Assembly (NCBI GenBank): GCA_024679065.1
Contig: JAGIQG010000001.1
Coordinates: 123,876,001-123,940,000, forward strand
Source of the DNA: Sphyrna mokarran
Taxonomy: Eukaryota
DNA length: 64,000 nucleotides
Direction of reading: 5' to 3'
A model generated the notes under the pieces. The model was not told the origin of the DNA. It did no database searches and saw only the letters and a program-made list of their open reading frames with translations. Position 1 is the first letter of the stretch, and every line of letters begins with the position of its first letter. Below, piece after piece: positions 19,112 to 56,013 of this stretch. Position numbers and translations under genes: made by a program.

Positions 19112-20525
19112 CATAGAACATAGAACATAGAACAATACAGCACAAACAGGCCCTTCGGCCCACGAGTTGCGCCGATCACATCTACCAATCCACAGACCTA
19201 TCTATAACCCCCTATCCTATTCTTTTCCATATACTCATCCAGAAGTCTTTTAAAAGACCCCAGTGAGTTTGCCTCAACAACCTCCGACGGCAGTCGGTTC
19301 CATTCACTCACCACCCTCTGAGTGAAAAACCTACCCCTGACATCTCCTTTGTATTTGCTTCCCTGCACCTTAAATCTGTGTCCTCTCGTAGTGACCATTT
19401 CAGCTCGGGGAAATAGTCTCTGAGAGTCCACCCTATCTATTCCTCTCAACATTTTATAAACCTCTATCAGGTCGCCTCTCAACCTACGTCTCTCCAGTGA
19501 GAAGAGTCCCAGCTCCCTCAACCTATCTTCATAAGGCCTGCCTCCCAATCCAGGCAGCATCCTTGTAAATCTCCTCTGAACTCTCTCAATAGCCTCTACA
19601 TCCTTCCTATAATGAGGCGACCAGAACTGCGCACAATACTCCAACTGGGGTCTGACAAGAGTCTTATAGAGCTGCATCATTACCTCCTAACTCCTAAACT
19701 CTGTTCCTCGATTAATGAAGGCCAGTACACCGTACGCCTTCTTGACCACTTCCTCCACCTGCGAGGCCGATTTAAGAGTCCTTTAGACCTGGACCCCGAG
19801 ATCCTTCTGCTCTACAATACAGCTAAGACTCCTACCCCTTATATTGTACTCCTTCATTCCATTATTCCTGCCAAAATGGACCACTACACATTTATCTGCA
19901 TTGAAGTCCATCTGCCACTTCTCTGCCCAGTCTTGCATCCTGTCTATGTCCCGCTGCAACTTTTGGCATCCCTCCAGACCATCCACAACACCACCGATCT
20001 TTGTATCGTCGGCGAACTTGCTAACCCATCCCTCCACTTCCTCATCCAGGTCATTTATGAAAATGACAAACAGCAGGGGTCCCAGAACCCCAGAGTCCCT
20101 GGGGCACTCCACTGGTTACCGACCTCCATGCAGAACAAGACCCATCCACAACCACTCTCTGCCTTCTGCCGGCAAGCCAGTTCTGAATCCATGAGGCCAA
20201 AGCCCCTTGGATCCCATGCCCTCTCACCTTCTCCAGCAGCTTTGCATGTGGAACCTTATCAAACACCTTATTAAAGTCCATGTACACTACGTCCACCGCC
20301 CTTCCTTCGTCAATGTGTTCAGTCACATTTTCGAAGAACTCAACTAGGATCATAAGGCATGACCTGCCAAAACCATGCTGACTATTTCTAATCAGTCCAA
20401 ACTTCTCCAAATGTTCATATATCTTATCCCTCAGAAGCCTCTCCATCAGCTTACCAACCACTGAAGTCAAACTCACCGGTCGGTAATTTCCTGCACTATC
20501 CCTGTTCCCTTTCTTAAAGATAGGA
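19112..20525 (-). mobile_element. Relatively young CR1/HER1-like LINE, 5'-truncated (RT domain to 3' tail)
   Basis: Collinear ORFs: SLTSVVGKLME...QHGF...DVVYMDFNKVFDKVPH; GPLLFVIFINDL...KFADDTK; LYKTLVRPQLEY...FFTQRVVSEWNRLP; (TTCTATG)3 tail; candidate TSD ATGTTA at 19106-19111 and 20526-20531. Confidence 0.95.
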
Positions 20526-20603
20526 ATGTTAGTGTGAGAATGCTAATTGCACTTGTATCAAATTCCTCTCCCTGCTGTTGTTTGTCCAGAAGAAGCTATT
20601 TGA

Positions 20604-27456: not shown

Positions 27457-27823
27457 ATAGAACATAGAACATTACAGCGCAGAACAGGCCCTTCGGCCTT
27501 CGATGTTGCGCCGACCAATTAGGAAAAAGCAATGACCCTCTAACCTAAACCCTTCCCTTTTCGTCCATAAACTTATCTACTAACCTCTTAAACGCCACCA
27601 AACTTGGCGCATCTACAGCTGACGCAGGCAGGTCATTCCATACCCTTACCACCCTCTGGGTAAAGAACCTACCTCTGACATCCGTCCTATAACTACCACC
27701 CCTTAATTTAAAGCTATGTCCCCTCGTGCTAGCTTTCTCCATCCTAGGAAAAAGGCTATCACTGTCTACCCTATCTAAACCTCGAATCATCTTATATGTT
27801 TCAATAAGGTCTCCTCTTAGCCT
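27457..27823 (-). mobile_element. CR1/HER1-like LINE 3' end
   Basis: ORF MIRGLDRVDSDSLFPRME...TRGHSFKLRGG...FFTQRVVRVWNDLP plus (TTCTATG) tail. Confidence 0.92.
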
Positions 27824-29899
27824 GTAAATGGTGGTGATATTGCCAATTGAAAAATGTACTTAGCTCAATGCAAGAAATAAACTGGCAAGTTTCCTAAATT
27901 AATAAGTAAATTGTTCATTTTGTTGCTAAAACTCATTCAGATAAAGATACATATACACACAGACACATTGACCCCTGTCACAAACATACAGATCTTAAAA
28001 CTTGGCCAAGGAAAAAGTAAAGTCAGAAAAAAATTATTCACGGATTGACATGAATTGATAGCAGTTAAGGATCTTGCCCCCTTTTCCCTATGATAGACTC
28101 ACACTGCTAGCTCAAAGTCAGTGTATTTCATCCAAGAACTGGGTCAGTTGACCTCTCTTTGGTTTCAATCTGGGCTTATTTTAGCCACTATCTCTGAGAA
28201 CTCTCTATACACTGTGTCTCTTTGAAGTAGCTTGTAGCCTTCAAAGTAGCTGCTGCAGAACAGTGTTCTTTTAGAAAAAGTGTTATATTTTGTGTGTATG
28301 ACCAGCTAATAACAGTACAAATTAATGTTCTATATAATACATCTCTATTACAGGGTATTTATGTCATATAAATGTATAACTAGTGTGAATCTGCCACAGG
28401 TCTGCATGAGATTCAGCATGCCACAAACACATCCTTCATTTTATCTCTGCATTTCCACCCAACAATGGCAAATTGAGATTTTGCAACTCTCTTAATTAAG
28501 TCACCCCACATGCCAATGTTTCCCACTCTTGCGTGCTCCATAAAATTTCACCTGTCAGACAATTTACAATAGCATACATTCTACTTTCATTGCAAGTTGG
28601 ATGCCCGGCCTTTTAAATAACTCTAGTGCAAGGCACATCTTGCAGCGCAACACTCACTCTGTGTTCAGTGGCATATTTGTCGTCCACACCTGCACAGGTG
28701 CAATTAAATGTTCTACCATCACATCAGCTGGTTTGCTGCATTACATTAGTATAACACTTCTTCTGTGTGTTCTGGTACATTCAGGGGACATTTGTAAAGA
28801 CACACTTTTTCCAGCATGGTCAGTTTGAATATTACTTAGCTGTGGTGTGGAAATAGAACATTTGTACAGTGAATATTTTTTCCTAACAAATAAGAAAGGA
28901 AAACAGTTTCAGTAGTTGATATATGATATTTCATAATATCCTTTAAAATTTTTACCTTGTTGGAACTGAATAGTGTTAATTTGATTTTCTTGGACAATCA
29001 AAATATTCTTCTTTCTGATACTAATTAGAACTGACTGGCAGCATATTACAAAACTGAATTCTCATATCTGCCTTTAGTTGAATTTGAATTAATTAGCATT
29101 TTGTTGATGTATATGAACTCTTCCTATCTTTGAGAGTTTTATTGGTTTGTGCCCTCTTGTGATCAATTTTTTTTTCAATAATATTGCATCTTACAAAAGA
29201 ACATTTAATTTTTTGAAGTTTAGTCTAGTAAGGAAGGTGTGTTTTTTTCAAAAACATAACTGTTCTCAAGTTCAATTTGAATTTCCATTATTTGCTGCAC
29301 ACGAAACAAGGAAACAAAAGAAAGCAATTCAGTTGAGTTTCAATTCTGCCTGTGTGAATATTGGCAAATCTCTTCTGAAAAGCTTGTGATCAAGAAAGGT
29401 TCTAGTCAGAATGTTGGACTCCATGGCACCTAATTCTTCAGAGCTGCAAGTGTGCTACAGACATGTATATATACAGCTGGTGCTCACCACACCGATGCCA
29501 TATTGACAGTGACATATACAGACACAGACACACACACATACACAGAGGTATGCACATAAGGCAGGTCATGATGTCACATTGACTTAATGTCAATGCTGCC
29601 ATTTTGGAGCTCTCAATGCCCCAGCTAACATCCTCTCAACTTTGCACAGTTGAAGACTAATTCAGCAGAAATGATCTAATCAATGCTATATAAAGATTGC
29701 ATTAACAGCTTAAGAGGTGAGTTATTGACTGATTCTTTTCTAGCTGTAGCTGCAATTGTAGAACAGTTATTTAAAGTTCCTGAAGGCTGCAGGGAATGTG
29801 CTGAAGAACTTCGAACTGACATCTATGAATCAGCACAAATCCTTTGCTCCCAGACTTGCATTCCCACAGCATCACTTGGATAATCAGCAGAAGGGACAC

Positions 29900-32471: not shown

Positions 32472-32666
32472 TAAGAGGTCTGGCAACACCAATTTTAAAT
32501 GCAACCGATTTATTTGATAGTAAATCTGCTAGCTTTCGGCGTTTGTGTCTTCATCAGGTGAATGAGGTGACGAAGTTCACCTGACGAAGGCACAAATGCC
32601 GAAAGCTAGCAGATTTACTATCAAATAAATCGGTTGGATTTAAAATTGGTGTTGCCAGACCTCTTA
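32472..32666. mobile_element. Penelope-like pLTR palindrome (91-bp arms, 13-nt loop) with two hammerhead cores
   Basis: Arms 32472-32562 and 32576-32666 with 4 mismatches; flanking 14-bp near-duplication CCA(T/C)GTGAAAATGA at 32450-32463 and 32667-32680; same family as 44767-44895. Confidence 0.85.
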
Positions 32667-40508: not shown

Positions 40509-40661
40509 CATGATGTGGAGATGCCGGCATTGGACTGGGATGGGCGCAGTAAGAAGTCTCATAAGATCAGGTTAAAGTCCAACAAGTTTATCACAAGCTT
40601 TCAGAGCACTGTTCCTTCACCAGATGAGTAGATTTTAACCTGGTGTTGTGAGACTCCCTAC
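40509..40661 (-). mobile_element. Short Penelope-like terminal fragment, hammerhead core mutated
   Basis: CATGATGTGGAGATGCCGGCATTGGACTGGG...GGTTAAAGTCCAAC; minus strand reads CTGGTGA-A-GGAAC-AGT-GCTCT-GAAAGCTT; short inverted tail TTAACCTGGTGTTGTGAGACT. Confidence 0.75.
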
Positions 40662-41899: not shown

Positions 41900-42025
41900 C
41901 TTCACAACTTTTCTTGTCTGCTGCAAGTTCATACCCTGGATCACAGCTGCACTTATAACTGCCCAAAGTGTTCACACATTGCTGCTCACAACCTCCATTG
42001 TCATGTCTGGCACATTCATCCTCTT
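41900..42025 (-). CDS. TLL1: TLL1 coding exon (~exon 14), calcium-binding EGF1
   Basis: (E)[41 protein letters not shown]; six Cys; acceptor CTACAG|AA, donor G|GTAAAA; 126 nt. Confidence 0.96.
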
Positions 42026-43287: not shown

Positions 43288-44766
43288 AATGGCTCCAAAT
43301 ATTTAGTCAGGATTATGAAGTGGGTGGAGAAGAGGGTTCCAGGGTGTTTGGATGAAATTAATTGCAGTGCATCTTTTACATTCCCATGAGATTTTCAATC
43401 CAACCACTTATTGGAAACGAAAGCAGCCAAGTAGTGAAGGTCAGGAAAATGAAAAATCAGATATGGGAGTTAGAGATCATGTGGAGATAGTGATAGAGGG
43501 AATAGATGATTGTGGATGGGTCAGCATATTGAGCTTGGAAGAAACATTGCCCCATCTGGCCTAAAGATACTGCTATAAACCCACTTCCATTATAAAGGAA
43601 AAAGATAAATTGGAGACAAGTTGGAATCGCATTTGAGATTTTAAAATGTTTGACTTCTCACCAGCCTTGATTCACTTCCTTGGGAGTTAAAATTCCACTA
43701 TTTCTAATGCTCCACTTGGTGACTAATTAGTGATTTTTCAAGTTAGTGTAACTTCTACGATTAATCACCGAAGGCAGGAGACTAGAGGAATCCAATGGGA
43801 ATTCAACACCAGTATCCATTATTTAGAAGCTATTTATGAGTTATGAACATACAAGAGCTAGACTACAATTTCAGGTAACTCAAAAATTAAAAAAGAAACA
43901 ACTCTCCTGGAGGGTTCAATGGGCAAGAACATTTTTGTATGGTAGTGTATTGGGCTATATCTGATGAAAAGATGCTAGCTTTAATCTCCAAGCTTTAATT
44001 TAGCCCATGCAGCAATAGGGGTTATGCTATGTTGATAAGGTTAGAATAAGATTGCTTTAGCTGGAATAATGCCTAAAGTTGATTAGTTTATTGGCAATCA
44101 ATGTCCAAACTAATACAGAGACTGATCAGTGGAAAATGACAAGAATGGACTGTCCTTTCTGGTGAAGTATGAGACTTAGTACTTTTTAATTTGTCAAGAA
44201 CTTTGATGTTTTTAATGTTACAGGCAATACATTTGCTAGTGTGAAAAATTATGTTGAATTATCAAGAGTAAATGGTGTAAAATGTGAGTTGATACGGAAA
44301 GTTAGGTGAATGGATAAAAAGGATAAAAAACTGAAAACATTTCCTCAATGAATTGAGTCAAAAAATATATCTTAATTACAATTAGTCACAGATGCAAACT
44401 GAAGTAGCAACCTAATACAGAACTTGCAATGGTTTGGTGCACAGCTTGTAATCATCAGAAGATTGACCTTTAGGGGTAATTAGAATTATTGAAGGTGATC
44501 ATAGCTGAGAATTTTATAAATCAATTGACACTATAGTAATTGGTGCTCCAAATAACTTGAAAGTAAAAAGTAGTATTCACTTAACAGATTAATTGAGGTC
44601 AATTTTCTCTTCTATGAAGTGCAAATCTGATTGCCCTTTATTTTAAAATTCTTACCCTTGTTTACAAATCTTCCCATAGCCTTGTTGTTTCCTATTGCTA
44701 TAACGTCTTAGGGTCCGACAACCCTCTGAGATATCTGCACTCTTCTAATTCTGACCTCTTGTGTAC

Positions 44767-45241
44767 AATGTAGAGATGCCGGCGTTGGACTGGGGTAAAC
44801 TCAGTAAAGTTTTACAACACCAATTTTAAATCCAACCGATTTACTTGATAGTAAATTTGCAAGCTTTCGACACTCTGTGTCTTCGTCAGGCAAATGCAGT
44901 ATTCTGGTCTGCAATAGCACACATATCAACACAGACAGTCAGAGATTGCTGATTAGAATGTGAATCCTTACATCTAACCTGCTATTCAAGTGTTAAAGTG
45001 GCTAACAATGTGTGTGAAGGGAATCCTGAGCATTGGTTAGAGAATTGTGTATTTTCTCCAGACAGCACAGTAAGTGAGGTTTTTTGCTAACCCAGGCAAG
45101 TTACGGGGGTTACAGATAGTGTGTCATGAAGCCAAGATCCCTATTAAGACCGTCCTCATGTGTGCGGAACTTGGCTATCAGTCCCTGCTCAGCAACTCTG
45201 CGCTGTTGTGTGTCACGAAGGCCCCCTTAAAGAACATTTAC
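44767..45241 (-). mobile_element. Penelope-like element 3' fragment (GIY-YIG endonuclease C-terminus, 3' UTR and pLTR tail)
   Basis: Minus strand from 45241 reads VNVL*GGLRDTQQRRVAEQGLIAKFRTHEDGLNRDLGFMTHYL*, the typical PLE endonuclease end (E..LI..F.T...GLN.D), then the pLTR with a hammerhead and a tail shared with 40509 and 54292. Confidence 0.85.
44855..44895 (-). ncRNA. Minimal type I hammerhead ribozyme motif (PLE-associated), intact fold
   Basis: 5'-AUUUGC CUGACGA A GACAC AGA GUGUC GAAA GC UU GCAAAU-3': 6-bp stem I, full core, 5-bp stem II, palindromic minimal stem III, NUH triplet CUU. Confidence 0.75.
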
Positions 45242-46085: not shown

Positions 46086-46319
<234 letters not shown>

Positions 46320-54291: not shown

Positions 54292-54435
54292 CATGATGTG
54301 GAGGTGCTGACGTTAGACTGGGGTGGGCACAGTAAGAGGTCTCACATCACCAGATTAAAGTCCAACAGGTTTATTTGGAATCACAAATTCCAAATAAACC
54401 TGTTGGACTTTAACCTCTTGTTGTCAGACTTCTTA
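54292..54435. mobile_element. Penelope-like tail plus fold-back, with 13-bp TSD
   Basis: CATGATGTGGAGG...GACTGGGG tail; hairpin TTAAAGTCCAACAGGTTTATTTGGAAT / ATTCCAAATAAACCTGTTGGACTTTAA; CTAGATC(A/G)TTAGC at 54279-54291 and 54436-54448. Confidence 0.85.
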
Positions 54436-56013
54436 CTAGATCGTTAGCTAAGACATCGCTGCATACATTTACTAGAAAGTGGATTAGTATTTAAGGCTAT
54501 ACTCTTCTTATTACTAACAATAAGTATATTTAGAGTGATGCAATGCTTCCACAATGATCCCTTTGTGGAAATCATTTGCCTATAGAAGTGTGCCATGTTA
54601 CTGAAAAGTTGGGAATCGCTGTAAATGTAAACAGAACTAACTGAATAAAAACTTCAAAAACCATGAAGCAATTGGTCAAAATGGAAAAATAAAGAATTGA
54701 TTGAATTTACAGCCTACTTAGTATAGATGCAGATTTGCTCAGTGTGAAAGATAGCTTCAAAAATCTACTTCCATTAAATGATCCTGAATATCTTTATAGA
54801 TATAACTATATAGTTCTAAATGCAGGAGTAATACTAACTGAGAAAAGAATTATCCAAGCTGACTGTTAATCATATGAGTTTAATGTACTTAATTATATTC
54901 AAGTGGTGGGCATTAATGCAAGATTCCCCTGTGTTCATATATATAGGAAAAGGCTGAAACTGTTGTTTGTTAGATGTGGTGACAGTTACATGCAATGTGT
55001 GACTCTATATATAAAAGCTTCTAAGTTTACAAAGAAGCTCCAGTTCTGTCCTTCACTACCAGACTAAGTTGTAGTGATTTCATGACTCATTAAAGAGGGA
55101 TTGTGTAACACCGTGATTTTAAAGGGTTGATTTTATTTTGCAATTGTTGCAAAAAGCTCAGACAGCAAAACTCTACTGCACTTAAACACCAATACACATT
55201 ACTGTGTTTCCTGGTGACGAGGCTGGATGATGGTATTGAGTTCTCTGATGACAGGAGGCAGCTTTGGTGGATTGTTCACATCAGATAAGTGAAGTGTTGG
55301 AGGTGGAAGAAGGAAATTTAGGACTGGAAAGTCCCAAGGTTATTTCCTAGTGTAGTTTACCGGAATATCCTGCACTATATCACCCATTAAGAAATCTCTA
55401 GCATTAAAAAAAAGTACTCATTTACACGCCTTTGATCCCTACTGGCACAATCTAGTTGCTTGCCCGATTTCTCGAGATGGGACCCATACTGTTGTCACTG
55501 CTGCTATCAGCAGCTAAGATCTTAGTGGTATCTGACTGAGATCATCAAACTTATTGCTTAAATGTTAATGCAACAAGAGCCCTGGCCATCAGGAAATACA
55601 TTCATTTTTAAGTTTTCTCTTGCATTATTCCCTTCAAATGAGGTGAATTAAGTGAAAATCATCCCCTATGACTCCATATCAATTAAAGTAAAATCTCAAA
55701 CTAGCAAGGAATTTTCTTTCAATTGCTAAGATAGATATCAAGTAATTCTAAAGTCATCTATTTAAGTCTCAGCACAACAAAATGTGAAATTAAGTTCTGT
55801 ACATCTGGTAATCTCAGTTAACAGCATAAATCTGATGCTGAGAACTGCCAGATAATTTTAAAGGGCCCAACTTGCTCACTAATGTGTTCTTAAGAAAGGA
55901 ACCCAATGGATACTGTCCCTTAAATTTCATTTCTTATAGCAAAAAAAAAGCTGTTGTTAAAACCTCAAATTCAGTGGCACAGCTATATGTCCCAACTGGA
56001 CAAAGTTCAATAC

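Follow-up and report, generated by a model that had tools for sequence, protein, structure and literature searches.

The window, the 64-kb stretch of DNA analysed here, contains exons of the host gene TLL1 on its minus strand. The astacin exon scores 137.6 bits for TLL1 versus 130.5 bits for BMP1. Mapped exons with AG/GT ends measure 118, 179, 106, 125, 116, 103, 117, 146, 196 and 126 nt, and the map, in which exons 1–3 were not located, extends over 137 kb. A 196-nt CUB-domain exon (46124..46319, minus strand) and the next exon, a 126-nt EGF exon (41900..42025, minus strand), enclose an intron of 4.1 kb. By human TLL1 numbering we take the 196-nt exon to be exon 13 and the intron to be intron 13; our expected exon lengths are assumed in the same way.

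This intron holds a type I hammerhead motif at 44855..44895 on the minus strand, recognized from its letters, its predicted fold and a stem-aware descriptor. The donor of the 196-nt exon lies 1.23 kb upstream, in line with the ~1.2 kb given by an earlier note on this DNA, and the acceptor of the EGF exon lies 2.8 kb downstream. That note had called the motif sense to TLL1, and it is, since the host exons are also on the minus strand. Read from 44895 to 44855, the motif consists of a 6-bp stem I, CUGACGA, an extra A, a 5-bp stem II with a 3-nt loop, GAAA, GC, U16.1 and U17; re-reading the minus strand matched the letters reported earlier exactly. The core order CUGANGA, GAAA, U16.1, H17 is complete. 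The predicted cleavage site follows U17, at 44860..44861 on the minus strand, which is also where the earlier reading had put it, between 44861 and 44860. The same reading gave stem III as AAGCUU. The palindrome is real, but the helix is shorter, comprising only A15.1-G-C-U16.1 (AGCU), because AAGCUU takes in A14 and U17, which stay unpaired in the active core. That both bases remain unpaired is a requirement for hammerhead catalysis.

Folding predictions allow stem I (6 bp) and stem II (5 bp) to pair, with the ends of the motif meeting in stem I. As an isolated 42-nt piece, the motif is predicted to form both stems at −10.5 kcal/mol (z −2.24; 4 of 200 shuffles are as good). Helix III of the monomer is unstable, a single pair with a 2-nt loop, which fits the dimer-dependent variant of Penelope-like elements (PLEs) and not a canonical hammerhead. 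The predicted fold also depends on context: the probability of stem II is 0.99 with ±30 nt of flank, 0.00 with ±60, 0.87 with ±200 and 0.52 with ±350. In the predictions, the pseudo-LTR (pLTR) segment 44896-44945, directly upstream of the motif, captures the 5' strand of stem II and unfolds the hammerhead. As a family feature, this modelled pairing may represent a folding switch or be an artefact of the prediction.

Generic searches do not single out the motif. An Rfam scan of the 64-kb window returned no hammerhead family at E ≤ 10. The loose pattern CTGANGA..GAAA occurs 11 times in the window against 6.2 expected, a count reached by 4 of 100 shuffles, so by itself the loose core pattern is within chance there. 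The stem-aware descriptor has five matches in 264 kb, every one of them inside PLE copies (one repeat).

A truncated Penelope-like insertion

The motif is carried by a 5'-truncated Penelope-like insertion of 474 bp at 44768..45241 on the minus strand, delimited by repeat alignment and made up of an ORF end, a 3' pLTR and a tail. The insertion opens with 132 nt from the end of a GIY-YIG frame: translation shows that 45110..45241 on the minus strand comprises the final 43 codons of the PLE ORF, the GIY-YIG C-terminus, with one premature stop. The stop of this frame is at 45110 and leaves 215 nt up to the motif, close to the ~220 nt noted earlier. The hammerhead thus lies 3' of the PLE ORF, in the pLTR, and sister copies have the identical layout.

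Copies at 29 other loci share 94–96% identity with the insertion and reach upstream to varying lengths. The longer ones contain a reverse transcriptase (RT), a Cx5Cx2C linker and GIY-YIG. In one sister (L024), RVT_1 (E 6e-10) and GIY-YIG (E 7e-5) both score above Pfam cut-offs, and the Cx5Cx2C linker stands ahead of GIY-YIG. A Cx2-5CxxC linker is a mark of Neptune/Nematis PLEs in the accessible text of 10.1101/2021.04.23.441226. We regard the element as putatively Neptune-type, a clade call made from the linker motif alone and not from an RT tree, Nematis having the linker too. The 474-bp copy is solo, with no inverted partner, and no target-site duplication longer than 5 nt was found within 40 nt of either insertion end. 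Among four long copies examined, two have an inverted partner; a full-length tandem element with two same-strand hammerheads was seen in none of the four.

The motif itself also has PLE-type features. By the list in the available part of PMC4209133, these are the extra base after A9, the G10.1-C11.1 pair and the palindromic 15.1-16.1 segment. Its earlier assignment to the dimer-dependent pseudo-LTR type agrees with both the position in the pLTR and the palindromic helix III. In the accessible text on this class, PLE hammerheads whose palindromic helix III is 2 nt long act as dimers, in which the AGCU of one copy pairs with that of the other; their proposed task is to excise element RNA from transcripts that are tandem or read-through. 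The minimal PLE motif of schistosomes is described there as inactive as a monomer and of low activity as a dimer (PMC4209133, in part). A review, as far as its accessible text goes, also calls palindromic-helix-III PLE hammerheads dimer-dependent (PMC6765202), and axolotl dimers are stated to cleave much better than monomers (PMC7229834, in part). Published work already covers the PLE hammerhead class, its spread over thousands of copies and its occurrence in opposite-strand pairs. A literature search by title and abstract start found no paper on shark PLE hammerheads, and no shark example was found among the hammerheads in the available part of PMC4209133.

The window contains other repeats as well. 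Older PLE-end fragments of a related family lie at 54296-54437 and 40513-40591, and a hairpin with 51-nt arms at 54331-54437 is the source of weak spurious Rfam matches. Reverse-transcriptase fragments occupy 19198-20542 and 27545-27859; we take these to resemble CR1-type LINEs.

Sequence from other organisms bears on the age of the insertion. The cross-species sample comprised contigs of four runs from four studies (X5, X8, X10, X18), none bridging the whole site, and the direction in which a contig continues was taken from record coordinates. Contigs of all four runs cover both flanks at ~90% identity. Past 45256, the right-flank contigs run on in sequence unlike that of the window for 2,019 letters in X5, 1,045 in X8 and 1,967 in X10; the X18 contig departs from the window sequence for 21 letters past 45256 and, past 44763, for 134 letters. 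Positions 44892-44982 are uncovered in X8 and X10, and missing cover alone was not counted as evidence. From these contigs, the insertion appears to be absent at the orthologous site in all four runs and to be lineage-specific. The same comparison suggests that 1–2 kb of older intron sequence was deleted at the insertion site in this genome. Beside the insertion, 44718-44761 has the appearance of a stub of another repeat.

Copy number, core decay and the cleavage triplet

Hammerheads of this kind are abundant in the genome. We counted exact patterns across its 2.77 Gb, with reversed patterns as controls. Intact-core motifs of the general layout number 23,528 genome-wide, family-pattern matches 4,261 and matches to the identical 39-mer 19, with zero in each control. 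The general-layout density of 8.5 per Mb gives 0.58 sense copies expected in the 137 kb of TLL1, and a probability of 0.44 that these 137 kb hold at least one. The 19 identical U17 39-mers divide into 3 forward and 16 reverse, the C17 form 89:80, a split that is presumably chance.

The structure of these motifs bears a mark of selection. In an even sample of 20 genomic motifs, covariation is seen in stem II (3.25 bp versus 2.30 bp with swapped partners, the observed pairing being reached by 0/5000 swaps) and not in stem I (3.95 versus 3.72 bp, 1040/5000). Because stem II covaries between families, the hammerhead structure has been selected in the source elements.

Comparisons among individual copies give no sign of selection. 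Core decay was scored at 11 core bases in 29 copies picked on sequence outside the ribozyme. All 11 bases are retained in 20 of the 29, and at least one is lost in the other 9. Of 58 cells at CpG sites of the core, 8 carry a mutation; of 261 cells at the remaining core sites, 2 do, which resembles the 0.9% background of the query region. An intact core is the norm among sister copies. Divergence was measured from the majority sequence of 27 subfamily copies, those left from 30 loci after the exclusion of 3 that were inverted partners within the same insertions. The TLL1 copy is ~3% from this majority. In a refutation test set by the earlier note, it differs at 1 of 41 positions inside the motif and at 12 of 397 outside (p = 1.0, at low power).

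The cleavage triplet is where the TLL1-intron copy departs from its family. Its triplet is CUU (U17), while the family majority is CUC, with 3,640 C versus 621 U at position 17 among the 4,261 copies and 169 C versus 19 U in the exact subfamily (n = 188). Position 44861 lies in a CpG, and C17 to U17 is a CpG-type change; the mirror G>A change of the same CpG is present in 435 copies, and decay of the CpG in stem II affects 1,018. CUU is last in the triplet ranking given in the available text of PMC8879150. U17 also lengthens the predicted self-pairing over A14, with a 10-mer duplex at −6.5 kcal/mol versus −3.9 kcal/mol for a natural C17 copy (L013), and this extended pairing would be expected to trap core bases. 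The TLL1-intron copy is predicted to be a slightly worse ribozyme than its family.

U17 is nonetheless widespread, occurring in 8 of the 20 evenly sampled genomic motifs. A CpG change at 44961 is common to 4 of the 8 U17 copies that cover the site (the window copy counted) and to 0 of 17 C17 copies. Judged from these sequences, U17 may come from a minor source element that still transposed, and not from decay in place. With U17 in 8 of 20 motifs and possibly inherited from such a source, the base need not be disabling. The co-occurrence of the changes at 44961 and 44861 may point to a minor source lineage or, alternatively, to ascertainment linked to methylation.

Candidate partners within TLL1

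A dimer-dependent ribozyme needs a second copy, and two in TLL1 were considered. The cis partner proposed in the earlier note, at ~32528-32560, does not hold up: the sense-strand hammerhead there (32524-32564) has mismatched stems I and II. The site belongs to a head-to-head PLE-end fold-back with 91-nt arms at 32472..32666 (no strand assigned), recognized as a hairpin and by its fold. We rejected this 32.5-kb copy as a partner on its broken stems, its fold of −0.2 kcal/mol and its place in one arm of a 91-bp hairpin of 96% identity.

A better candidate, and the nearest same-strand intact motif to the window hammerhead, is 58 kb off and outside the window. It is an identical 39-mer twin, on the same strand and in TLL1, 58 kb upstream at G000:C1:123978712-123978750, in the intron before the QEYN exon and 1.1 kb ahead of the acceptor. 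Such a same-gene twin would arise by chance with a probability of ~4e-4, or 5e-3 at subfamily level, both calculated post hoc. A head-to-head PLE fold-back (L034:8653-9908, that is G000:C1:123978653-123979908) holds the twin in its second, sense arm; the arms measure ~630 nt, and the hammerhead stems of the twin have a predicted probability of 0.00. By its modelled structure, the fold-back would form a very long duplex and is likely an A-to-I editing substrate. In its antisense arm, the hammerhead at L034:9777-9817 has the stem I closing pair changed from C-G to U-A, a two-sided change that keeps the pairing.

The two TLL1 copies share two CpG transitions. Gene conversion between them was considered and rejected, as they have no non-CpG variant in common. 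Co-folding of whole motifs was likewise rejected as a model of the dimer, since it yields a strand-swapped product and not an active double hammerhead.

Passenger or active ribozyme

We consider it highly probable that the motif is the 3'-pLTR hammerhead of a truncated Neptune-type PLE, lying sense in a TLL1 intron as a likely idle passenger that is spliced out uncut. A 5'-truncated reverse-transcription product would have inserted in this lineage, possibly with the loss of the older intron sequence. The motif would then be transcribed as part of TLL1 RNA, meet no free partner and leave with the spliced intron uncut. A negligible fraction of TLL1 transcripts would be cut, because there is no free partner, the triplet is the weakest and the intron would presumably be removed within minutes. 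Points against an idle motif include the intact core, the two perfect stems, the identical same-strand twin in TLL1 and the frequency of U17 among sampled motifs. As judged from sequence, the motif is ordinary cargo of a known element class, and cleavage of the host gene is unlikely. The role in TLL1 pre-mRNA processing proposed earlier finds no support, with the named partner broken and the insertion seemingly missing in the four runs from other organisms.

Activity could arise in trans, with RNA of some of the thousands of sister elements pairing through AGCU and cutting a small share of nascent TLL1 transcripts as a by-product with no selected role. All 23,528 genomic matches carry AGCU by construction, so potential partners are abundant; cleavage by related ribozymes in dimeric form is on record (PMC4209133; axolotl, PMC7229834; both as far as their available text goes), and a fast engineered intronic hammerhead reduces expression in zebrafish (PMC11856399, in part). 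Yet the 4-bp intermolecular helix is predicted at just −2.5 kcal/mol, and the cited activity comes from tandem constructs and is low for the minimal PLE motif, according to the accessible part of PMC4209133. Most natural ribozymes are too slow in vivo and an intronic position lowers cleavage, in the portion of PMC11856399 available, and the CUU triplet is bottom-ranked (PMC8879150, in part). We judge this low-level cutting in trans improbable. A dimer in cis, in which the motif and its twin 58 kb upstream cut or loop the pre-mRNA between two introns, is far less probable still. The twin matches the motif in its 39-mer, strand and gene, and the two shared CpG transitions fit as well; against this, it is buried in the fold-back, where its stems are not predicted to form, its intron could be spliced long before polymerase covers the 58 kb, and the lack of a shared non-CpG variant leaves no sign of gene conversion keeping the copies alike.

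Domestication as an intronic ribozyme that regulates TLL1 would have precedent: RECK is among the genes with conserved intronic hammerheads in amniotes, and a retroelement origin is attributed to those hammerheads in the accessible text of PMC6155905. Sense orientation and an intact core would suit it too. We give it hardly any credence: the copy is young at ~3% from its subfamily majority, the four runs from other organisms apparently lack the insertion at the orthologous position, the motif shows no excess conservation in a test of low power, and it lacks a stable helix III, while its intact core is ordinary among sisters (20/29). A bolder claim, that the two identical sense TLL1 hammerheads, descended from one minor source element, together or with sister RNA, cut a measurable share of nascent transcripts, seems to us very doubtful. 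Were it true, dispersed PLE ribozymes would levy a genome-wide, dose-dependent tax on host pre-mRNAs, and solo intact sense copies would be depleted from introns.

As an idle passenger, the TLL1 motif is of little importance as it stands, since the motif is already described and has over 23,000 copies in this genome. It would gain importance if dispersed PLE hammerheads cut host pre-mRNAs: the output of host genes would then be tied to retroelement RNA levels, and a route would be seen by which amniotes came to have domesticated intronic ribozymes. Thousands of young copies that differ at single core bases by CpG decay offer a natural comparison for selection on cleavage.

The closest counterparts of the motif are the metazoan PLE pLTR hammerheads of Cervera and De la Pena 2014 (PMC4209133). 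As the accessible part of that paper describes them, they share the type I form, an extra nucleotide between A9 and 10.1, a G10.1-C11.1 pair, a short palindromic helix III and an occurrence as thousands of dispersed singles and opposite-strand pairs. Unlike the minimal core described there, the TLL1 motif has a 2-nt GC insertion in helix III, a 5-bp stem II and a CUU triplet. The sister copies resemble the Neptune-clade EN+ PLEs of Craig et al. (10.1101/2021.04.23.441226, in part) in their RT, Cx2-5CxxC linker, C-terminal GIY-YIG, pLTR hammerhead and short tail, and inverted 5'-truncated partners are common among them; the TLL1 copy, unlike those PLEs with inverted partners, is a solo 474-bp stub.

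Non-LTR retrozymes, in the portions of PMC7229834 and 10.64898/2026.07.22.740005 available, likewise have type I hammerheads that are related to those of PLE pLTRs and depend on dimers. They are tandem head-to-tail non-coding repeats with a hammerhead per unit, whereas the TLL1 element is a single copy that keeps its ORF end. In the available text of 10.64898/2026.07.22.740005, retrozymes are reported in one chondrichthyan and as depleted from introns in Xenopus. With amniote intronic hammerheads such as RECK, as the accessible text of PMC6155905 presents them, the motif shares the type I form, an intronic position, host-sense orientation and retroelement ancestry. Those RECK-type hammerheads show conservation in both birds and mammals and make tertiary contacts; the TLL1 motif, in contrast, appears lineage-specific, still sits within its retroelement and is without a stable helix III.
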